64,000 bases of DNA, from positions 666,756 through 730,755 of the forward strand of contig CAYRUS010000001.1 of NCBI GenBank assembly GCA_964427735.1. Direction: 5' to 3'. The stretch comes from an uncultured Gammaproteobacteria bacterium. GTDB lineage: Bacteria > Patescibacteriota > Microgenomatia > UBA8517. Below the pieces are notes generated by a model that saw only the letters and a program-made list of their open reading frames with translations, did not search any database and was not told the origin of the DNA. Positions within the stretch are counted from its first letter, which is position 1. Every line of letters begins with the position of its first letter. This document shows, one piece after another, positions 12,220 to 63,015 of the stretch. The position numbers were made by a program, and so were the translations under genes.

Positions 12220-12292
12220 GGGCCGGTAACTCAGTGGTTAGAGTGCCAATCTTATAAGTTGGAAGTCGATGGTTCGAATCCATCCCGGCCCA
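12220..12292 (+). tRNA. tRNA-Ile, anticodon UAU (reads AUA)
   Basis: Hand-folded cloverleaf: acceptor GGGCCGG/CCGGCCC, D stem ACTC/GAGT, anticodon stem CCAAT/GTTGG with loop CTTATAA (TAT at 34-36), T stem GATGG/CCATC, discriminator A. 73 nt. Confidence 0.7.
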
Positions 12293-12376
12293 CTCAAATA
12301 CTTTTTAATTTACATTAATAAGTCGTGTAGGTGGCAACTAGTGACAGGAGAATATAGATAAGTACTTTGCTGAAAC

Positions 12377-49376: not shown

Positions 49377-50246
49377 TTACAAGGTAGACTCGTATGAATC
49401 TTTTATCAGTGAGAATACATAATCGGTATCAGTGTCTGGCTCAAATCTAGCAAGTCCAAGGTAGCCCCACTCATTGCTGGTGATGTCTTTAACCAACTTC
49501 TTGCTATCATTTGGATAAGATCTATCTCTGAGCAACACCTTGATGTAATTTGTGTAAAATTCAAACCTCACAAAGCTTTTTGTGGTCTTGTAAGTAATTC
49601 CGCTTTTTTGAGCTGCTTTTTCCTCCACATCTGGCAACTGTAAAATTTGTTCTCTCAAGGTCTTATATTTCTTTTGCATCACATCGCTTGTTTTGTTCAT
49701 ATGGAATTCCAAACTATATTCAGTTGTATCAACCAAGTCAGCGACTTTTCTTGGTTTTAGTGTTGGCGGTGTATAGATGCTTTCCAAATGAAGAATATCA
49801 GGCTGATAATAGTGATAGGACAATAATTCTATGTTACTCTCTTGCTCAACTGCGCCTAAGATGTATCTTCCAAAACCTCTGGCGACTAGTACAACTCTTG
49901 GTAGCTCCCAGTTAACTTTGATTCCTTTACCTAGTCTATTTTCAACAAGTAGTTCAAAATGCTTCTTGTTCTTGATGAGCCAGTTGTAATAAAAGAGTCC
50001 TTGAGCAAGCACTTCTTCGTTTTCTTTCCATTTGTATTCCAATATAACTGGTGAGTTGTTCTCATCTAATCCAAGAGTGTCAATTCTGCCATCATGTATT
50101 GGATATTCTTTCTCAATAAACCTGATACCTAATAAGTCCTCAAGGTTTGCAGCAAAGAAATCTCTTAAAGAAAACTCATCGCCAAAGCCATCATCTTTGA
50201 TTGAGCATTTAATAACTTTATTATTATCTATCTTAAATATAGCCAT
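49377..50246 (-). CDS. PD-(D/E)xK nuclease-fold protein (NucS/DUF91-like N-terminal domain, DUF4268-like C-terminal half); last gene of the hsd operon
   Basis: D...ExK motif GRIDTLGLDENNSPVILEYKWKE. Probable start at the second Met (MAIFKI, 50246), overlapping the hsdR stop (50248-50250). Confidence 0.45.
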   Translation of the reverse strand: MAIFKIDNNKVIKCSIKDDGFGDEFSLRDFFAANLEDLLGIRFIEKEYPIHDGRIDTLGLDENNSPVILEYKWKENEEVLAQGLFYYNWLIKNKKHFELLVENRLGKGIKVNWELPRVVLVARGFGRYILGAVEQESNIELLSYHYYQPDILHLESIYTPPTLKPRKVADLVDTTEYSLEFHMNKTSDVMQKKYKTLREQILQLPDVEEKAAQKSGITYKTTKSFVRFEFYTNYIKVLLRDRSYPNDSKKLVKDITSNEWGYLGLARFEPDTDTDYVFSLIKDSYESTL

Positions 50247-50247
50247 T

Positions 50248-53200
50248 TTACTTTTCTCCAGTCCAATCTTTTGCCAATAATTCAGCTTGCTCAAGTACTA
50301 TTTTGGTTGCACTTTCTTGCTTGTCTGGTGGATATTTGTATTTTTTCAATAGTCGTTTGATATAGACTCTTAGTTTTGCCTGAACGCTTTCTTTAATAGT
50401 CCAGTCAATGGTGGTGTTCTTTCGAAGCATGTCCACCAGTTCTCGTGCCATTGCTTTGAGTGTCTCATCTCCAAGCTCGCGGACAGCACTTTCATTGTTT
50501 GCCAGTGCATCATAAAAAGCTACTTCTTCATCGCTAAGACCTAGATCGTGTCCTTTTTCTTTCTCCAGTTTTATTTTCTTGGCAAGTTCCAGAAGCTCTG
50601 CAATAACTTGTGCCGCCTCAATGGTTCTGTTTTGGTATTTTCGTATTGTCTCTTCAAGCATTTCAGCAAATGAGCGAGACTTTACCAGGTTTTGTTTGGT
50701 CATCGTTCGCAACTCATCATTTAGAAGTTTTTTCAATAGTTCTAGTGCAACATTTTTGTGCTCCATATTCTTAACTTCTGCCAAAAATTCTTCAGAGAAT
50801 ATAGAAATGTCAGGCGATTTGATACCAGCTGCAGAATAGATGTCGATAACCGCATCAGAAGTCACCGCAGAAGAAACAATCTGGCGTATTGCCAAGTCAT
50901 AATCATCGTCAGTTGGTCCACCTCCGTGAGGCTCCATCTTCAGAATAGCACCTCTAATAATTTGGAAGAATGCAACTTCATCACGAATCCTGATTGCTTC
51001 ATCGTGTGGTACAGCCAAAGAAAATGCCTTAGATAGCTCTGAAACCGCCTGTAGGAAGCGTTTTTTACCTTCATTGATGCCTAGCACAAAGTCAGTGGCT
51101 GCAGAGATGGTTTGAGTACGCTGGCCTGGTGTTCCATCAAAGTAATTCTGGTAGTCAAAACCATGAAATAGAGCCTTTACTACCTCATATTTCTCAAGCA
51201 TGACTGATACTGCTTGATCTTGTGGAATGGCCGTTTCCTGGCGGTCTGATTCTGAGTAATAAGAAAGTGCTTCCTTAAGCTCAGGTGCAATGCCAATATA
51301 GTCCACAATAAGTCCACCTTGCTTGTCTTTGTAGACTCGATTGACACGAGCAATAGCTTGCATCAGTCCATGGCCTTTCATTGGTTTATCAACATACATG
51401 GTGTGAAGTGAAGGTACATCAAAACCAGTCAGCCACATATCACGGACAATAACCAACTTCAGTTCATCGTCTGGATCTTTCATTCTTCTGGCTACTTCGT
51501 CCAGCATATGCTTTGGTCTTATATGAGGCTGGAAATTGAGTGGATCAGCAGCACTTCCAGTCATGACAACTTTTAAAAATCCTTTCTTGTCATCATCGCT
51601 ATGCCAATGAGGTCTTAATTTGATAAGTTCGTTATACAGCTCAACCGCAATTCTTCTGCTCATAGCTACTATCATGCCTTTGCCATCCATTACATCCAGA
51701 CGATTTTCAAAATGTTCTACCAAGTCTTTTGCCACCAGCGCAATTCTTTTCTCAGAACCAACCATAGCTTCAAGCCGCGCCCACTTGCTCTTGAGCTTTT
51801 CTTTTCGCTCTGTTTCTTCACCTTCTGTCAGCTCTTCAAATTCAGGATCAATCTTTGGCTGTTCCTCTTTCTTTAGCTCAATTCGTGCCAGCCTTGCTTC
51901 ATAATAGATCGGCACTGTAGCATGATCCTCAACAGCTCTAGTGACATCGTAGACATCCACATACTCGCCAAATACTGCTCTGGTGTTTCTATCAGTAAGT
52001 TCAACTGGAGTACCTGTAAAGCCAATAAATGAAGCGTTTGGCAGTGCATCGCGCATATGCTTGGCAAAGCCTGAAATAAATTCATATTGGCTTCTGTGAG
52101 CTTCATCCGCAATAACTACAATGTTTTTCCTGTCAGACAACATTGGATAAGACTCACTAGAGTTAACTGGCAAGAACTTCTGGATAGTGGTAAATATCAC
52201 ACCACCTGATGCGACCTTCAATAACTCCTGCAGTTCATGTCTGTCAGAAGCCTGTTTTGGTGTTTGCCGCAAGAGGTCAGCGCACTTGGAAAAAGTGCCA
52301 AATAACTGATTGTCCAAGTCATTTCTGTCAGTCAATACAACAAGAGTAGGATTGTTGAGCTCTTGGATCACTTTGCCTGCAAAAAATGTCATTGTCAGAC
52401 TCTTGCCAGATCCTTGCGTATGCCAGACTACACCGGCTCTTCTGTCTCCTTCTTCTTGTGTTGCCTTAATAGTACTTTCAACTGCTTTATTGGTGGCAAA
52501 GTATTGATGATATGCAGCAGCTTTTTTTATAGTCTTTTCTCCGTCAGTCTCAAAGACGATAAAGTTTGAGATAAGGTCTAAGAGTCTGTTCTTGTCGAAT
52601 ATACCTTTCAAGAGTACTTCCAGCTGTGGCAGAGCATTTGGTGCTAACTCTTCACCGTCTACTGTTCGCCACCTGGTAAACCATTCCAAATTGGCAGAGA
52701 GTGTGCCGACTCTGGCATCAGTTCCATCACTGATGATGGAAAGTTCGTTATAGGCAAAAAGTGTTGGAATGTCTTGCTTGTAAGTCTGGATTTGATTAAA
52801 GGCACCTTTGACGGTCGCTTTTTCATCTCCAGGATTTTTGAGTTCTATCACCACCAACGGTAAACCATTTACAAAGACGATAACATCAGGCCTTCTGTTG
52901 ATATTATTCTCAATGACAGTGAATTGATTGACCGCCACAAAGTCATTTTCAGAAGCGTTATTCAGGTCTACCAGTCTCACCTTATCACCAGCCACACTTC
53001 CATCACTTCTCATGTATTCCACATCCACGCCATCACGAAGGTATGAGTGAAATATCTTGTTGTTGAGTACCAAGCTTGGAGTAACAAATGCTACTTGCAA
53101 TGCTTTCTTGAAAGCTTCTTCTTTGGCATCGGCTGGAATATCAGGATTGAATTTCTCAATTGCTTTCCAAAGTCTTTCTTCCAGAACTACATCGGCATAC

Positions 53201-53328
53201 GACTTACGTTCTGGATTTTCTCCATCAGGAGGTGGTGCAATCTCAGGACCACCAACCACAGAATAACCAAGCTCCTCAAGCCATTCCAATGTTGCTAGTT
53301 CTAAATCTGTTTCTGTGTATTTAGTCAT
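50248..53328 (-). CDS. hsdR: Type I restriction enzyme R subunit (HsdR)
   Basis: N-terminal [22 protein letters not shown], Walker [14 protein letters not shown] box [12 protein letters not shown], helicase C-terminal motifs; about 1025 aa. ORF track start is 53352; the MTKY start at 53328 is more likely. Confidence 0.9.
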
Positions 53329-54490
53329 GATTAGCTTTCTTGATATCTTCAACTATAAAGGATGCTCTTTCATACAGTTCATCGTAAGTAACAATATCTA
53401 TATTTCTTGAGTCTCGCTGGAAAAGCTCGTACGTTCTTGCTTTAGTTCTTAGTTCCTCAGTATCTCCAGAGAATTGATTTGAATTTCCGATTATTAATAT
53501 GGTTTTAGGATCAACTGTCTGTTGCTTAATATGTTTACCTTCGTCATCAAAGTTTTTGCTTGCATTTGCCTCAGATTTAATTTGCCAACTAGCCTTTTGT
53601 TCTAGTATTTGTGAAACGGCATGGATTAAGTCTGATGATAAACACCAACTACCTGAACGGTTTTTGTCCTCTCCAAACAGTGGAGTGTTTGGTTTTTTAA
53701 GCTCTACTAATACAGTAAATCTATTACAGCTTAATAAAAAATCTCCAATCTCACCATCTTTTCCAGCAATATTTGTATTAGAAACATGTACCTCTTTTTG
53801 AAGTATTCCTAAAAATCGATAGTCTAGTCCGTATCCAAATATCCAAGGATTCTTTGTGAAAAAATGCTGCCATGCGATTTCTTCTCTTTTATCATTTAGT
53901 GACTCTTGTTCTTGATACTTCTCTAAATATCCGTCTTCATTTAATAATTTATAAAATACGTCAAGCTGATTTTTCCTATAACCGATGTTGGTTATATCAG
54001 TAGAGGTAACTAGTCCATTTTTTATCAATTCTTTTAAAAGCTTTTCACCTTCTTCAGTCGATAAAAGTGTAACTATCTTTTTTTTAGTTTCTTCGTTAAG
54101 AGTGAGAAAAGTTTCATCGGATAAGCCAATCCTTCTCTCGGAAATACTTTTTAGGTCCAGCTTTCTTAAAAAAGAAATAAAGCTCATCACCTTTTCGAAA
54201 GTAAACGATGAAAACGTAACTTTCTCATCAGTTTTTGTCCACTGACCTTTGGATAATCTGAATTTCTCTATAACTACTCTGTTGATGTCGTCTTTATCTT
54301 TTATGTAGCCAACAGTGACCTTTAGTTTTATTTGAGGTGATAGTTCAAATTCTTCTGTATCAGATGCATAAAAGTTAAGATACTTTCCATCACCACTACC
54401 AAAATTGCTCACGTACAATACATCAGTACTTGAGTTTCCTGCAATGTCTGCATCAGATGGTTCTGGTATTTTCCAATCGTCAAAGCTCAT
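53321..54490 (-). CDS. DUF4263 (Shedu SduA-like) PD-(D/E)xK nuclease-domain protein embedded between hsdS and hsdR
   Basis: C-terminal half [25 protein letters not shown]...[27 protein letters not shown]...[10 protein letters not shown]...[13 protein letters not shown] matches my recollection of the DUF4263/Shedu nuclease domain (D...ElK core). 389 aa, start 1 nt after the hsdS stop, stop overlapping the hsdR start. Confidence 0.45.
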
Positions 54491-54491
54491 A

Positions 54492-55772
54492 TTAATTCAC
54501 TCTTATCTTTCCACTCATAAGTCTTGGTAATAGCGAGTCTCTTAATGTCGTTAGAGTCATTATTTCGTGCATGTTTTCATCAATTTTTAATAGCAAGTGG
54601 CTTGCTGACTTTTCAAATAACTGTCTAACACTTGAATCTGGATACAACACATTAAGAATTTTTAATTCTGTTGGTCTAACTCGCTGCCTGGAACCTGTTG
54701 AGCCAGTTGATAAGCTCGAGAAGTATGTATAAAAAATGTTTTCACGAAACATAAAGTTGCTCCAAGTCCAGTCTTCTTTTTTTGGTACCACATTAATGAA
54801 TTCCGTTGAGCTTATAGATTTTTCATTCCACCTATCAGTAAAGATAGTCCAAATACGCTTTGCATTTTTTGGATTTAGTTTAGAAATGAGAATGCTATCC
54901 TGACTTATGTGCGTTTTATTGCTTTTTATCGTATTTCCTAGTTCTAGCATTGGTGAGTTATATTGGTCGAAAGAAGGAATGCTGAAATGCCAATAGTTTT
55001 GGTTTCCGTTCTTACTTGGATTAATTGATTTGGTGTTGATTTCAAATATTTGTTTGACCTTTTTAACCATCCATCCTTTTGGTATCTCGCCAAGTTCACT
55101 TTCCACCATCTCGCCGCCGCTGGATTTGTATGGCTCGCCATTTTCATTTGGAAATTCAAAATCCACAAACCACTGTTTGAATAGAGCTTTACCTATCTCC
55201 TCCAACGTCTTATTCATCCTGCGGTTTAATTCAATCTTGTCATCAAGTGAGGAGAGAATAGAAGCGATTTGTTTTTGCTCGTTTTCTGAAGGAAATGGAA
55301 TACGTGATCTTTCAAGAACATCTGGATTAAATGCTGGATATGTAGATGTAGTTGTATCAGCAATTGCTGACAAATAATTTGTGTATTCCTCTGTTGTGAG
55401 GTAATAGTACAGAAACCTTGGATTAACTTTTTTACTACTTACAACAGCGTATCCGGTAGATGCAATAAGATTAGGTTTTGTTTTAGAAACAAATGCAAAG
55501 TGCTTAAGATTTGGACGTACTGTTGATATTAAAATATCATTATCAGAAACAATCCGTTTTGCTCTGCTTGGTGCATCTTTCAAAGATAACTTTTGAGTTT
55601 CTAATATTTCGCCTTTAAGAGTGGATGATACATCTATATACTCAACCCACTCATACTTAAAATCCTTATTGACTGATGCTTCATTTACTTTTGCAACCTC
55701 TGACAACAAAGCAATATCCCAATCCTCAGGAATTTCACCAATTTCTGTTTGTTTGAATGTATTATTTGTCAT
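54492..55772 (-). CDS. hsdS: Type I restriction-modification specificity subunit (HsdS), two target-recognition domains
   Basis: Conserved central and C-terminal HsdS repeats (IPFPSENEQKQIASILSSLDDKIELNRRMNKTLEEIGKALFKQWFVDFEFP; ...LLLKIDENMHEIMTLTTLRDSLLPRLMSGKIRV) separated by two variable domains; 426 aa. Confidence 0.85.
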   Translation of the reverse strand: MTNNTFKQTEIGEIPEDWDIALLSEVAKVNEASVNKDFKYEWVEYIDVSSTLKGEILETQKLSLKDAPSRAKRIVSDNDILISTVRPNLKHFAFVSKTKPNLIASTGYAVVSSKKVNPRFLYYYLTTEEYTNYLSAIADTTTSTYPAFNPDVLERSRIPFPSENEQKQIASILSSLDDKIELNRRMNKTLEEIGKALFKQWFVDFEFPNENGEPYKSSGGEMVESELGEIPKGWMVKKVKQIFEINTKSINPSKNGNQNYWHFSIPSFDQYNSPMLELGNTIKSNKTHISQDSILISKLNPKNAKRIWTIFTDRWNEKSISSTEFINVVPKKEDWTWSNFMFRENIFYTYFSSLSTGSTGSRQRVRPTELKILNVLYPDSSVRQLFEKSASHLLLKIDENMHEIMTLTTLRDSLLPRLMSGKIRVN

Positions 55773-56403
55773 CTGTATTTTTGTTATCTCGTTTTTGTAT
55801 AGCAGCTTTTTTGCTTACAGGAATCTTGTCATAAATAGCATCAATTTCTTTTGGCTCGGTTATCATTTTTTCAGCTATAAAATTTACAAGTTTAAAAAGA
55901 GCTGATGCTGTTTCAATGTCATCCTTTATATCCAACTCTCCTGGATGTACTGACTCGTTACCAATAACACGAAGTGAGTCAAGCGACTGCTGAACTTTAG
56001 GAGGAAGTCCATTTTTCACTAGATTGGCGATATCAGTATTAAGATCTTTTCCTTTTTCACCAAGCTGAATACATAGCTTTTGAATTGCCAACCTAAGCAA
56101 AGCAGCTGATCCTCTTGGAGACCTTTGCAGAATAGAAACTGCTTCGTTATAGTCTTGAACAATATCATTGTTGAGGTCCTCATTAGGAGGCTCTATTCCT
56201 GAAAAATCTGGATATATCATCTTCTCTTCGTGCCAAATGGAGTACTGGCCACATCTTGCACAAAAACAAACTCGTGTATTTTCTAAAAAACCTCCATTTA
56301 CTGATTTAATGCCGTGCCAATTTTGATTTGAAAAAGCACTGCAGAAAGGACAGTTGAATCCTGACGCTTCAAATTCTGGTTGTGTAAATGGAATTTTTGT
56401 CAT
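55762..56403 (-). CDS. DUF4145-like protein with N-terminal Zn-ribbon (CPFC...CARC), embedded between hsdM and hsdS
   Basis: N-terminal CPFCSAF...CFCARCGQY Cys4 ribbon. C-terminal helical domain with [15 protein letters not shown]...[15 protein letters not shown] resembling the DUF4145 R..GN.aaH core often found in hsd operons. ATGA overlap with the hsdM stop. Confidence 0.5.
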
Positions 56404-57938
56404 AAATCGTAGCCAACTTTTTTTAAATTTTCTTTGATCTTTGCTTCCAGCTCTTTTGACTCTTTGAATTGTGCTGATAATTCGCTGGTGAGTTTTTCCA
56501 TTTTCTCCTCAAACACTTCGTCATCTTCCATCTCAAAATCTGTGCCAACATATCTGCCAGGAGTGAGGACATAGCTATTCTTTTCTACTTCTTCAATCTT
56601 GGCTGATTTGCAAAATCCTTTGACATCCTCGTAGTCGCCGTCTGGATTCCTCCAGTTGTGGTAGGTGTCTGCGATTTGTTTGAGTTCTTTATCTGATAAT
56701 TCACGATGGCGTCTGTCAACCATAGTGCCTAGCTTGCGAGCGTCAATAAAGAGAATCTCTTCATGTCTGTCTCGGAAGTTGTGGTCGTATCTGTCGCGAG
56801 ATACAAACCACAAAGAGGCTGGAATGCCTGTGGTGTAGAACAACTTGTCTGGCAGTGCCACTATGCAGTCAACCAAGCCTTTCTTTATGAGTTCTTCTCT
56901 GATCTTGCCTTCATTGGAAGTGTTGGAAGAAAGCGCACCATTTGCCATCACAAATCCAGCAATGCCGGTAGGTGATAGATGATGGATAAAGTGCTGAATC
57001 CAAGCATAGTTGGCATTGCCTGTTGGTGGAACGCCATATTTCCAGCGGACATCATCGCGGAGTCGCTCGCCACCCCAGTCACTGACATTGAATGGAGGAT
57101 TGGCCAGAATAAAATCCGCTTTCAAGTCTTTGTGAAGATCGTTGTGGAAACTGTCAGCATCGGATTCTCCAAGATTGCCTTCTATGCCGCGAATAGCCAG
57201 ATTCATCTTTGCAAGTCTCCAAGTAGCGGCGTTGCTTTCCTGTCCATATACTGAAATGTCGCCAACATTACCGCCATGCTCCTCAACAAACTTTTCACTT
57301 TGGACAAACATACCGCCACTGCCACAACAAGGATCGTAAACACGGCCTTTGTATGGCTCTATCATTTGCACCAGAAGCTTAACTACTGATGCTGGCGTGT
57401 AGTATTCACCACCTGCTTTGCCTTCTGCGCTGGCAAATCTGCCTATAAAATATTCATAGACACGACCTAAAATATCTTTTGATTTTGACTCTTTATCTCC
57501 AAGACCTAGTGAGCTGAATATATCGACAATTTCACCTAAGCGCTGTTTGTTAAGGTCTGGTCTGGCAAATCTTTTTGGAAGCACTCCTTTGAGCGTTGGA
57601 TTTTCTTTCTCAATAGCTATCATTGCATCATCAATGAGCTTGCCGATTTCTGGCTTTTTGGCGTTTTCCTTTAAGTAATTCCACCTGGCATTTTCCGGCA
57701 CCCAGAATACATTCCTTGCCTTGTAAGCATCTTTGTCCTCACACTCACCATCAAATGCTTCCGGATCGTTCTTGATGGTCTGATACGCTTCTTCGAATGA
57801 ATCTGAAATGTATTTGAGAAAGATAAGACCAAGCACAACATGCTTATATTCACCTGGATCTAAGTTGCCGCGAAGCTTGTCTGCGGCTGACCATAATTTT
57901 GTTTCAAAGCCTAGATTAGCTGATGTATTATTTGCCAT
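56400..57938 (-). CDS. hsdM: Type I restriction-modification N6-adenine DNA methyltransferase subunit (HsdM)
   Basis: SAM-binding motif [13 protein letters not shown], catalytic motif [15 protein letters not shown], HsdM N-terminal domain; 512 aa. Confidence 0.9.
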
Positions 57939-57963
57939 AATTTTCTAAATTCTCTTTTAATGC

Positions 57964-58173
57964 TTACTTCTTATTTCTTGACAAGTAAGCTTCAATATCA
58001 CTCTTTCGATAGCGCCTGTCACCAACACCTTTTCGCGTGCCTACACGAACAGCTTTCAGCGTGCCGTTGCGGTCCCACCTACGGAGAGTCTGAATATTTA
58101 CATTTAGTATTTTTGCTGCTTCCTGTAAGGAAATAAGCTCTTCAAGCTCTGCGTTCATATAAGTTATGTCCAA
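57964..58173 (-). CDS. Small helix-turn-helix DNA-binding protein (excisionase/MerR-like HTH)
   Basis: LQEAAKILNVNIQTLRRWDRNGTLKAVRVGTRKGVGDRRYRKSDIEAY, typical of Xis-family/MerR-type HTH; 69 aa. Immediately upstream of hsdM on the same strand. Confidence 0.55.
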   Translation of the reverse strand: MDITYMNAELEELISLQEAAKILNVNIQTLRRWDRNGTLKAVRVGTRKGVGDRRYRKSDIEAYLSRNKK

Positions 58174-60061: not shown

Positions 60062-61819
60062 ATGAACTTGATATACGCACAATATTCTAGAAAGTCATCT
60101 GAGTCAAAAGAGAAACAAGCTCTGTCAATTTTTGAGCAAAATGAGGAGTGCAAAAAGGCTGTTGTTCGAGACAATTTGAAAATCGCACATATCTTTGAGG
60201 AATCGAGATCTGCATACAAACCAAATAACAGGCCAGAGTTCACACAAATGATTGAACTGATAGAGGCCAAGAAAGTAAATGCTATCTTGACCTGGAAACC
60301 AGACCGACTATGCCGCAATCCAATGGAAGGCGGACACCTTCTCCAGTTGCTACAAGATGGAAAGTTACAGGAAATTCGATCGACAGATGGTGAAAAATAT
60401 ACACAGGATTCAGATCATCTTATTTTACAGATCCATTTTGGCATGGCTAACCAATATTCCAGAAACCTGAGTAAGAATGTCAAAAGAGGCAACCATTACA
60501 TATTCCACAATAAGAAAAAATGGATTGGACCAGCTAAGCCAGGATACATCAACTACTACGATGAGGCAGCCAAAGAAAAAAAGATAGGCGTGGACGAACT
60601 AAGATTTCCACTGATCCAAAATGCTATTAAGCTCATATTGTCCGGCACTCACACTCCTATGGAAGCTTTTGACGTGCTCAATAACAAATGGAAATTTAGG
60701 TCCAGAAAACGAGGTTCACTAGGTGGCAAACCACTAGCAAAGTCTGGTTGGTATCGGATTTTGACAGATAGTTATTACTATGGCTTAATGGTTCGCACTG
60801 AAGGAGAAGTGATTGGAACACACAAGCCAATGCTCACAGAAGATGAATTTGACACGCTACAGGTAATCTTAGGACGCAAAGGCAAGCCAAGAATGGCCAG
60901 GCATGAATTTGCATATAAACATGTGCTCAAATGTGGTGAATGTGGTGGTTCTGTTACTGCTGAAGAAAAAGTGCAGATAATCTGTTCATCTTGTAAATCC
61001 AAATTTCATAAAGGCAAAGTAACCAATGCTTGTCCGCACTGTAAAATGTTGATTGAGGAGATGAAAAAGCCAACAATTCTCAAATATGTGTACTACCACT
61101 GCACCAAGCGAGTCAATAAATCTTGTACTCAAGGAAGTGTAACAATAGAAAATCTTGAGAAGAGAATAAACGAAGAACTGGATAAGTTCGAATTGAGCGA
61201 AGAATTCCGCGACTGGTGCATTGACCACTTGAATGAACTCAATGAGAAAGAAGAAGTTGATATTAAAACTATCAAAGAAAACCTCGTAAATGAGATGAAT
61301 AAATGTGATAAAGCACTTGCGAAACTTACAAGGCTCAGAATTTCAAGAGAAAACGTCTCAAATAGTGCTGAAATGGAGAAATTCTATGATGATGAAGAGA
61401 AAAGACTGCTAAAAGAGCGCAAAGACATCATGAAGCAAATTGGTACAGTCGATAAGAAACAGGAGGAGTGGTATTTCCAGTCCAAGGAGACATTTAACTT
61501 TGCTTGCACTGCCAAATATCAGTTTGAGACTGGTGACGTTAGAACCAAGACGTATATTTTGTCAAAACTTGGTTCGAACCTAACAATTCTAGATCGAAGC
61601 CTCCAAATTTCAGGCGAAAGGCCATATTTCCTAATAGAGAAAGCAAAGAAGGAGATTCAAGAGGTTGTCCTGGCGTTAGAACCTGAAGAAAAGGCCATAA
61701 TATCAAGCAATTTGCTAGCTTATGAGCCTATCAGTACTATCTTGCTGCGGAGCAGGGATTCGAACCCCAAATTCCAGTTCCAAAGACTGGCGTGTTACCA
61801 TTACACCACTCCGCAATGA
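60062..61819 (+). CDS. Large serine recombinase (resolvase catalytic domain + recombinase domain + Zn-ribbon + coiled coil)
   Basis: N-terminal LIYAQYSRKSSESKEKQALSIFEQ (catalytic Ser region) and DRLCRN motif; central recombinase domain; CGECGGSV...CSSCKSK...CPHCKM zinc ribbon; C-terminal coiled coil. 585 aa. The last 25 codons read through the antisense of tRNA-Gln. Confidence 0.8.
   Translation: MNLIYAQYSRKSSESKEKQALSIFEQNEECKKAVVRDNLKIAHIFEESRSAYKPNNRPEFTQMIELIEAKKVNAILTWKPDRLCRNPMEGGHLLQLLQDGKLQEIRSTDGEKYTQDSDHLILQIHFGMANQYSRNLSKNVKRGNHYIFHNKKKWIGPAKPGYINYYDEAAKEKKIGVDELRFPLIQNAIKLILSGTHTPMEAFDVLNNKWKFRSRKRGSLGGKPLAKSGWYRILTDSYYYGLMVRTEGEVIGTHKPMLTEDEFDTLQVILGRKGKPRMARHEFAYKHVLKCGECGGSVTAEEKVQIICSSCKSKFHKGKVTNACPHCKMLIEEMKKPTILKYVYYHCTKRVNKSCTQGSVTIENLEKRINEELDKFELSEEFRDWCIDHLNELNEKEEVDIKTIKENLVNEMNKCDKALAKLTRLRISRENVSNSAEMEKFYDDEEKRLLKERKDIMKQIGTVDKKQEEWYFQSKETFNFACTAKYQFETGDVRTKTYILSKLGSNLTILDRSLQISGERPYFLIEKAKKEIQEVVLALEPEEKAIISSNLLAYEPISTILLRSRDSNPKFQFQRLACYHYTTPQ
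61745..61815 (-). tRNA. tRNA-Gln, anticodon UUG
   Basis: Minus strand TGCGGAG-TG-GTGT-AATGGTA-ACAC-G-CCAGT-CTTTGGA-ACTGG-AATT-TGGGG-TTCGAAT-CCCTG-CTCCGCA-G; U8 present; anticodon TTG. Confidence 0.7.
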
Positions 61820-62839: not shown

Positions 62840-62915
62840 GTGACTCCGGAAGGACTCGAACCTTCAACCATCAGCTTAAAAAGTCCGCCAGTTGGCGGAT
62901 CTGCCATTGAGACTT
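62840..62915 (-). other. Degenerate tRNA-Lys copy (pseudo-tRNA): exact 41-nt duplicate of the tRNA-Lys 3' half plus D-loop-like remnant, anticodon stem replaced by a CCGCCAACTGGCGG palindrome
   Basis: Plus strand TGACTCCGGAAGGACTCGAACCTTCAACCATCAGCTTAAAA occurs at 62840-62880 and again at 62944-62984. The upstream copy lacks a 5' acceptor strand able to pair with CGGAGTC. Confidence 0.6.
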
Positions 62916-62940: not shown

Positions 62941-63015
62941 TGGTGACTCCGGAAGGACTCGAACCTTCAACCATCAGCTTAAAAGGCTGTTGCTCTGCCA
63001 TTGAGCTACGGAGCC
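62941..63015 (-). tRNA. tRNA-Lys, anticodon UUU, CCA encoded
   Basis: Minus strand GGCTCCG-TA-GCTC-AATGGCA-GAGC-A-ACAGC-CTTTTAA-GCTGA-TGGTT-GAAGG-TTCGAGT-CCTTC-CGGAGTC-A-CCA. Confidence 0.7.

Follow-up and report, generated by a model that had tools for sequence, protein, structure and literature searches.

Previous studies revealed that Shedu proteins defend their hosts as single genes (Gu et al., 10.1101/2023.08.10.552793; Loeff et al.). Shedu genes are also found within larger defence loci, and 602 of the 5,499 for which genomic context was available are located inside restriction-modification (R-M) systems of types I-IV (Gu et al., 10.1101/2023.08.10.552793, Fig. S8), while 87 lie inside BREX (Gu et al., 10.1101/2023.08.10.552793). 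Embedded defence genes are often held by type I R-M, BREX and DISARM operons, as the "guilt-by-embedding" survey revealed, and the PDC families were defined by their embedding in R-M, BREX and DISARM systems (Payne et al., 10.1101/2024.01.29.577857). PrrC is the extreme case, in that nearly all prrC genes lie within type I R-M systems; in EcoprrI (hsdMSR), the R-M enzyme keeps PrrC inactive until the enzyme is inactivated by Stp of phage T4 (Payne et al., 10.1101/2024.01.29.577857). The same survey proposed that embedding brings a selfish benefit, because the linked genes are transferred horizontally together (Payne et al., 10.1101/2024.01.29.577857). TgvAB, which lies inside a type I R-M system of V. 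cholerae, protects alone, without the hsd genes, and its protection alone is 10- to 100-fold weaker than that of the whole cluster against several phages (PMC11411939).

The Shedu gene described here (sduA) lies in a window of 64,000 nucleotides, which is the whole stretch of DNA analysed. Its situation is the same as that of the R-M-embedded Shedu genes of Gu et al., and its operon holds, in addition, a RAZR-like gene and a PDC-S18-like gene. Reading of the junctions from the sequence gave six genes on the same strand in the order hsdM, RAZR-like, hsdS, sduA, hsdR and PDC-S18-like (Table 1). The sequence-only reading had described sduA as packed between hsdS and hsdR, and the coordinates and both junctions were found to be correct. 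It had also treated this placement as unusual, which does not hold in view of the 602 of 5,499 Shedu genes in R-M loci and of the embedding survey of Payne et al. Both the embedding of Shedu in R-M operons and the N-terminal domain of this protein (see below) are already catalogued, and the locus is an ordinary further example.

Table 1. Genes of the defence operon and domains of SduA, with positions in the window.
Feature	Position	Strand	Details
hsdM, type I R-M methyltransferase	56400..57938	minus	512 aa; first gene of the operon; Pfam, PADLOC
RAZR/PD-T7-4-like gene	55762..56403	minus	213 aa; Cys4 zinc ribbon and DUF4145 HEPN-type RNase domain
hsdS, specificity subunit	54492..55772	minus	426 aa; Pfam Methylase_S, PADLOC Specificity_I
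sduA, Shedu nuclease	53321..54490	minus	389 aa; ATG 54490, TAA 53323-53321
SduA N-terminal domain, putative sensor, cluster N3	54146..54490	minus	residues ~1-115
SduA helical linker	53894..54145	minus	residues ~116-199; helices in predicted models
SduA_C/DUF4263 PD-(D/E)xK nuclease domain	53324..53893	minus	residues ~200-389; Pfam, phmmer, Foldseek
hsdR, type I restriction subunit	50248..53328	minus	1026 aa counted from ATG 53328; Pfam, PADLOC
PDC-S18-like gene, appended phage-defence candidate	49377..50246	minus	289 aa from ATG 50246; PADLOC PDC-S18

All five junctions of the operon are tight. The stop codon of hsdM overlaps the start of the RAZR-like gene as ATGA, and the end of the RAZR-like gene overlaps the start of hsdS by 11 nt. 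hsdS ends with ...AAT TAA, which is followed by a single T and then by the ATG of sduA (1-nt spacer). The end of sduA, ...AAT CAT GAC TAA, holds the ATG of hsdR, giving an overlap of 8 nt, and the junction between hsdR and the PDC-S18-like gene reads TAA-A-ATG (1-nt spacer). From position 53328, ATGACTAAATAC is translated as MTKY (product MTKYTE...), and an in-frame alternative start of hsdR, a TTG, is present upstream at 53352. The ATG at 53328 is the likely start of hsdR, because the match to Pfam HSDR_N starts at the third residue of the product counted from it.

A consensus scan of the locus found a single weak promoter-like site, which lies upstream of hsdM, and detected no convincing terminator on the minus strand between the genes of the operon; the scan gave fewer consensus matches than shuffled sequence and is informative only in that it shows no good internal terminator. 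Because the junctions are overlapping or have 1-nt spacers and no convincing internal terminator was detected, it is reasonable to infer that sduA is co-transcribed with the hsd genes, and it is probably also translationally coupled to them. The co-expression that the sequence-only reading had drawn from the packing is supported to this extent.

The type I R-M system that hosts sduA has complete domain sets in HsdM, HsdS and HsdR, with all genes in one transcriptional direction (Pfam and PADLOC). HsdM matches N6_Mtase (E = 1.4e-110) and HsdM_N (E = 1.6e-28) of Pfam and MTase_I of PADLOC (E = 9.4e-235). HsdS matches Methylase_S (E = 3.4e-20) and, over residues 23-425, the PADLOC model Specificity_I (E = 3.9e-82). 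In HsdR, HSDR_N (E = 4.7e-50), SWI2_SNF2 (E = 3.8e-83), T1RH-like_C (E = 2.6e-133) and a T1R_D3-like domain were found, and the score with the PADLOC model REase_I is 1173.9 bits.

Homology searches confirmed the open reading frame between hsdS and hsdR as a Shedu (SduA) homolog with, as judged by alignment, a complete catalytic site. Its residues 203-373 match Pfam PF14082 (SduA_C, DUF4263) from position 3 to 159 of the 159 positions of the profile (99.7 bits against a cut-off of 27, E = 2.5e-28), and residues 8-385 match positions 9-394 of the 396 positions of the PADLOC SduA model PDLC00392 (E = 3.8e-141), which is a wide margin over the PADLOC criteria for single-gene Shedu (HMM E-value of 1e-25 or below and coverage of at least 50%; PMC8565338). 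The assignment to Shedu (DUF4263) made from the letters of the sequence was thus borne out by both models. Among solved structures, the nearest relative is B. cereus Shedu (8TI8, chain A; phmmer E = 9e-16, profile E = 5.7e-23); E. coli SduA (8PS4) comes next.

The catalytic residues of B. cereus SduA were defined as E204, D249, E264, K266 and Q295 (Gu et al., 10.1101/2023.08.10.552793). In the alignment, in which an offset of +2 in the chain numbering of the B. cereus protein was allowed for, they correspond to E204, D250, E263, K265 and Q294 of SduA here. D250 stands in GDFLL, E263 and K265 in ELKK, and Q294 in SQIL; the D of GDFLL and the E and K of ELKK, which had been singled out beforehand as the residues to check, therefore align with D249, E264 and K266. 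All five PD-(D/E)xK residues are invariant in the alignments of 25 and of 117 homologs.

The AlphaFold model of SduA has a moderate mean pLDDT (63.5). Searched with Foldseek, the model gave significant PDB matches to Shedu structures only, and the five best were to 8ti8, 8ti9 and 8ps5 (E ~5e-7, probability 1.00), with TM values of 0.63-0.64 when normalised to the nuclease-domain chains of 8ti9. One segment of low pLDDT, residues 221-258, includes D250; it is predicted to be flexible and is the counterpart of the motif II loop, which is mobile in the B. cereus protein.

B. cereus B4264 SduA (8TI8, 8TI9) belongs to the same length class (382 aa, against 389 aa here), and it shares with this protein the layout of an N-terminal domain, a helical linker and a C-terminal DUF4263 nuclease as well as the five catalytic residues. 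The two proteins also differ. The B. cereus protein was characterised alone as a single gene, while sduA here lies inside a type I R-M operon, and the N-terminal domain of the B. cereus protein is of the SduA_N/sPC4-Whirly type, to which the N-terminal domain here is unlike by sequence. E. coli SduA (8PS4, 8PS5; Loeff et al.) has the type I Shedu architecture (mean 386 aa) and shares the C-terminal PD-(D/E)xK domain; its sequence match to SduA here is weak but significant (E = 4e-4) and is accompanied by a match in fold. However, the nuclease core alone aligns (profile positions 256-384), and no counterpart of its DNA-end-sensing clamp was detected here.

A dedicated model of residues 1-178 predicted a helix at 13-19, five strands within 25-87 and a helix at 95-110, which are followed by the helical linker. 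Helices of the linker were predicted at 133-143, 146-157, 168-184 and 188-195, with low confidence for residues 119-167. The database search retrieved more than 1,900 homologs of this SduA. Patescibacteria and Proteobacteria are among the sources of the best 120, which align over 93-100% of the length of SduA with identities of 47-84%, with the exception of three truncated entries (72-76% coverage). The closest homologs are from Shapirobacteria (74%) and, among the rest, Patescibacteria groups, on which basis the genome here is probably of CPR origin. In the homolog alignments, Y26, F30, G35, L113, G148, D165, R172 and K173 are invariant in the N-terminal half.

One of the homologs, from Marinomonas profundimaris (locus L073), was identified by exact look-up as WP_024022899.1, which is 47% identical to SduA here over residues 1-382 and 38.6% identical over the N-terminal 175 residues. 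Table S3 of Gu et al. gives WP_024022899.1 as '4263N3+DUF4263' with an N-length of 192, and N3 is one of the 59 unnamed N-terminal families of that study (Gu et al., 10.1101/2023.08.10.552793). Because this full-length homolog is listed there, the N-terminal domain of SduA here belongs, by homology, to the published cluster N3. The sequence-only reading had suggested that the N-terminal ~220 aa might be a novel sensor. This novelty was not upheld, as the PADLOC SduA model spans the region, the region is conserved in the best 120 homologs and the domain falls in cluster N3.

Several other comparisons of the N-terminal domain gave no match. Pfam SduA_N (PF21407) did not match this SduA at E <=0.01, while homologs of the B. 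cereus type match it at E-values down to 2.9e-34, and hhalign of the N-terminal alignment against an alignment of the B. cereus type detected no profile-profile similarity (probability 0.7%). By these two results, the N-terminal domain has no sequence match to SduA_N, the sPC4/Whirly-type domain of type 1A Shedu such as that of B. cereus. In PDB searches with the single sequence and with a profile of 117 sequences, the nuclease domain alone was aligned and the N-terminal domain was unmatched. Similarly, comparison of the fold of the N3 domain gave no confident match, and NCBIfam gave no model for this SduA.

In a scan of one genome per species, 196 loci were confirmed; the best 80 were retrieved, and the genomic context of the subfamily was analysed in the 79 usable ones. 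Hsd and type III genes were detected by tblastn and by iterated HMMs and checked by Pfam. The HMMs were iterated from the Hsd proteins of this locus and from one type III pair, so that the R-M counts are lower bounds; N6_N4 methylases adjoining locus L010 were left out of them. As counted in this biased sample (best 80 of 196), by greedy calling of ORFs on contigs of which many are short, R-M genes were present on both sides of sduA in at least 14 of the 79 loci (10 of the 46 loci with >=4 kb on both sides), sduA directly followed an R-M gene in at least 15 (12 of 46), an R-M gene was found within four genes of sduA in at least 6 (4 of 46), and no R-M gene was detected nearby in 44 (20 of 46).

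An embedded or directly appended sduA is therefore present in 29 of the 79 loci and in 22 of the 46 well-flanked loci (best 80 of 196), mostly with gaps of <=17 nt, and the R-M partners of the 29 loci are type I, type III or fused methylase-type genes. Compared with the 11% of all Shedu (Gu et al.), the N3-type subfamily seems to be R-M-operonic several-fold more often. R-M linkage is also phylogenetically clustered, since 39 of 49 nearest neighbours share the same state while 24.4 were expected (p ~0.0002).

The order hsdS-sduA-hsdR was also detected in L001 (Shapirobacteria), L025 and L029 (both Saccharibacteria) and L069 (Bacteroidales), with gaps of -4 to +16 nt. L025 and L029 keep this order with an HsdR only 28-29% identical to HsdR here. 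L001 is the closest relative, with identities of 74% for SduA, 82% for HsdM, 84% for HsdR and 33% for hsdS; by these values, hsdS alone is exchanged between L001 and the locus here. Other arrangements with type I genes were found in L050, where sduA lies between hsdM and hsdS, and in L014, where it follows hsdR. In seven species (L003, L004, L009, L013, L015, L054 and L080), sduA follows a type III Mod-Res pair with gaps of 0-4 nt. The remaining R-M-linked copies of the subfamily include those that follow large fused enzymes of the N6_Mtase, Eco57I or MmeI type.

The SduA of L014, behind a type I hsdR, and that of L009, behind a type III res, are 87% identical overall and 90.6% identical in the N-terminal domain, and neighbours of which one is R-M-linked and the other stand-alone have 81-84% N-terminal identity. 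Because N-terminal domains are ~91% identical between type I- and type III-linked copies, no specific HsdR partner is favoured. The sequence-only reading had also put forward a possible functional coupling to the restriction complex; these comparative data argue against a specific partnership of SduA with HsdR.

The gene here is probably an ordinary type 1 Shedu (long N-terminus) of the N3 subfamily, which acts as an autonomous defence module; the type I R-M operon around it is intact, and the genome is probably that of a CPR bacterium. By analogy with the two solved homologs, SduA would be an auto-inhibited nuclease which, expressed together with the R-M genes, adds a further layer of defence. 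It would be switched on once its domains sense an infection-associated nucleic-acid feature, and the activated protein would then nick or cleave DNA. The embedding would provide co-regulation, co-inheritance and complementary coverage, with a division of labour in which R-M acts on unmodified DNA, Shedu on phages that escape restriction and RAZR by abortive RNA cleavage; a physical dependence of SduA on HsdR would not be required.

Autonomy of SduA is suggested by published Shedu proteins, which act as single genes, and by the 44 of 79 subfamily loci in which no R-M gene was detected up to four genes away. There is also a precedent for embedded genes that act independently, since TgvAB protects without the hsd genes. 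Like sduA, TgvAB (GmrSD-like; V. cholerae VPI-2) interrupts a type I R-M operon, and complementary coverage was proposed for it. It differs from sduA in being a two-gene type IV system against modified DNA, of another protein family, which alone protects against Tevenvirinae (PMC11411939). Against the autonomous module stands the R-M linkage of the subfamily (29/79 loci; 22/46 well-flanked), which is far stronger than in Shedu overall (11%). As this linkage has a phylogenetic signal, it hints at a functional benefit of R-M proximity that the autonomous module does not explain.

One way to account for such a benefit, which we regard as possible but rather unlikely, is that Shedu amplifies the effect of restriction. 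The ends cut by the R-M enzyme in unmodified phage DNA would be the ligand or the substrate of N3-type Shedu, which would nick or degrade the fragments and so block repair or recombination, and the coupling would be functional and non-physical. E. coli SduA senses DNA ends (Loeff et al.), the subfamily accompanies the break-making type I, type III and fused methylase-nuclease classes of R-M, and the exchange of R-M types between near-identical Shedu copies fits a need for ends and not for one subunit. However, more than half of the loci (44/79) have no nearby R-M gene, although R-M elsewhere in the genome could supply the ends, and no similarity of the N3 domain to the E. coli clamp was detected, since the nuclease domain alone aligns and the TM of the whole model to 8ps5 is only 0.36.

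A broader form of this idea is more doubtful still: the N3-type Shedu clade may be a specialised R-M companion, the N-terminal domain of which senses a common product of restriction, such as broken or translocated unmodified DNA. If true, this would explain why nearly half of the well-flanked loci are R-M-operonic and why near-identical copies swap R-M classes, and N3-type Shedu could fill the RecBCD-type role of post-restriction degradation in small CPR genomes.

A guard comparable to PrrC appears very unlikely. It would require that the type I R-M complex holds SduA latent and that an anti-restriction protein like Ocr or Stp releases it as a back-up nuclease. PrrC in EcoprrI is likewise a non-R-M nuclease inside a type I operon and the textbook case of functional coupling, and sduA has the same position in its operon as described for prrC in EcoprrI. 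The junctions of sduA with hsdS and hsdR are tight, and their order recurs with the distant HsdR proteins of L025 and L029 (28-29% identity). In contrast to PrrC, however, the subfamily occurs alone in about half of the species and elsewhere also lies behind type III or fused R-M genes, and its N-terminal domain shows no co-variation with the R-M partner. PrrC combines an ABC-ATPase with an RNA nuclease, while SduA here is an unrelated PD-(D/E)xK DNA nuclease in which Pfam found no ABC-ATPase or anticodon-nuclease module. [quoted passage not shown] An obligate guard of this kind and specific docking to HsdR were both down-weighted by the stand-alone homologs and by the N-terminal identity across R-M partners.

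It is equally improbable that sduA is a passive and perhaps poorly expressed hitch-hiker, kept mainly through joint transfer in R-M loci that tolerate and accumulate insertions, while the arrangement itself brings no advantage: linked horizontal transfer was proposed as a selfish benefit (Payne et al., 10.1101/2024.01.29.577857), the lower GC content of the RAZR-like gene, hsdS and sduA (0.33-0.36, against 0.42-0.45 in hsdM and hsdR) suggests a mosaic origin and a large serine recombinase is present upstream of the operon, but the sduA ORF is intact with all catalytic residues, the order hsdS-sduA-hsdR is kept in the closest relative (L001), and overlapping junctions in many independent lineages point to selection for co-expression.

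The single locus adds little, as Shedu is characterised and its embedding in R-M systems is published. It is a compact defence operon of six genes and four systems (type I R-M, RAZR-like, Shedu and PDC-S18-like) in a probable CPR bacterium, and it has a modest value there, since CPR immunity is little studied. The apparent excess of N3 in R-M operons is the sole mildly new point, and together with the exchange between R-M classes it also has a modest value. If it reflects a real dependence of N3 on restriction products, it would provide a model, open to testing, of how innate defence layers act in synergy.

Besides sduA and the hsd genes, the operon and its flanks gave several further observations. 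A large serine recombinase was detected ~2 kb upstream of the operon. A search for flanking att repeats of tRNA-Gln around the island found none. The PDC-S18-like gene matches the PADLOC model PDC-S18 (E = 9.5e-64) and, weakly, Pfam DUF5655 (E = 1.2e-5) and NucS_C (E = 6.8e-5). The RAZR-like gene matches PADLOC PD-T7-4 over residues 6-209 (E = 1.5e-85) and Pfam DUF4145 (E = 3.2e-17). The cysteines of its product are C18, C21, C48 and C51, and its R145 and H153 match the spacing of R146 and H154 in RAZR (PMC13017515).

The hsd operon, a type I restriction-modification operon, is a compositional mosaic. When window 53000-56500 was compared with 50500-53000 and 56500-58000, GC content was 0.33-0.36 for the RAZR-like gene, hsdS and sduA (the Shedu nuclease gene), while it was 0.42-0.45 for hsdM and hsdR. 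Between the window and its closest relative, the Shapirobacteria locus L001, hsdS was only 33% identical, whereas hsdM, hsdR and sduA were 74-84% identical, and a 106-aa ORF was found in L001 in place of the RAZR-like gene.

Besides sduA, the hsd operon was found to contain a second embedded defence gene, RAZR/PD-T7-4-like, in the interval between hsdM and hsdS (all coordinates are listed in the table). Its product has a CxxC...CxxC zinc ribbon (C18, C21, C48 and C51) and a DUF4145 HEPN domain, and the spacing of R145 and H153 is the same as that of the catalytic residues R146/H154 of E. coli RAZR (PMC13017515). The PDC-S18-like gene, whose product showed weak matches to DUF5655 and NucS_C-like domains, starts 1 nt after the hsdR stop; this appended gene brings the extra defence or candidate genes in the operon to three. 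In locus L011, a homolog of it (58% identity) lies directly upstream of the Shedu gene, with no hsd genes between them.

Among the best 80 of 196 confirmed SduA-homolog loci, a type III order of Mod (N6_N4_Mtase), Res (ResIII) and SduA recurs in seven, with gaps of 0-4 nt, in Poribacteria, several Patescibacteria, one Gammaproteobacteria MAG and Flavobacteriia. The Shedu protein of L009, one of the seven, is 87% identical to that of L014, which lies behind a type I hsdR. Locus L063 holds another multi-system operon, where a type IV restriction gene of the GmrSD type comes after SduA, with an hsdR next in line. In L077 (Psychroflexus montanilacus), the R-M-embedded Shedu is accompanied, ~7 kb upstream, by a further Shedu-like ORF that is divergent (32% identical to residues 161-384).

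About 2 kb upstream of hsdM there is a large serine recombinase ORF, which together with small HTH-like ORFs suggests an integrative element adjoining the defence operon. As the 3' end of the recombinase ORF runs through an oppositely oriented tRNA-Gln, this ORF may in reality stop earlier. A repeat of this tRNA-Gln was sought on the far side of the presumed element and was not found. Additionally, an exact 42-nt direct repeat (copies 103 nt apart), one copy of which is the 3' part of a tRNA-Lys, resembles the scar left at an att site by an integrative element. Elsewhere in the window, a tRNA-Ile with anticodon TAT was predicted; reading of AUA by such a tRNA is uncommon in bacteria.

Coordinates of features in the window and in SduA-homolog loci (L numbers)
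Feature	Location	Strand	Evidence or detail
tRNA-Ile (TAT)	window 12220-12293	+	ARAGORN
PDC-S18-like gene	window 49377-50246	-	PADLOC E=9.5e-64
RAZR/PD-T7-4-like gene	window 55762-56403	-	213 aa; PADLOC E=1.5e-85
Small HTH-like ORFs	window 58.5-60.0 kb		
Large serine recombinase ORF	window 60062-61819	+	weak XisF/CcrB-type matches
tRNA-Gln	window 61744-61815	-	
42-nt direct repeat	window 62840-62881 and 62943-62984		
tRNA-Lys	window 62941-63015	-	
Mod-Res-SduA	~3.7-9.2 kb in L003, L004, L009, L015, L054, L080		
Mod-Res-SduA	0.6-5.9 kb in L013		
SduA, GmrSD-type gene, hsdR	L063 1855-8251		
Second Shedu-like ORF	L077 769-1452
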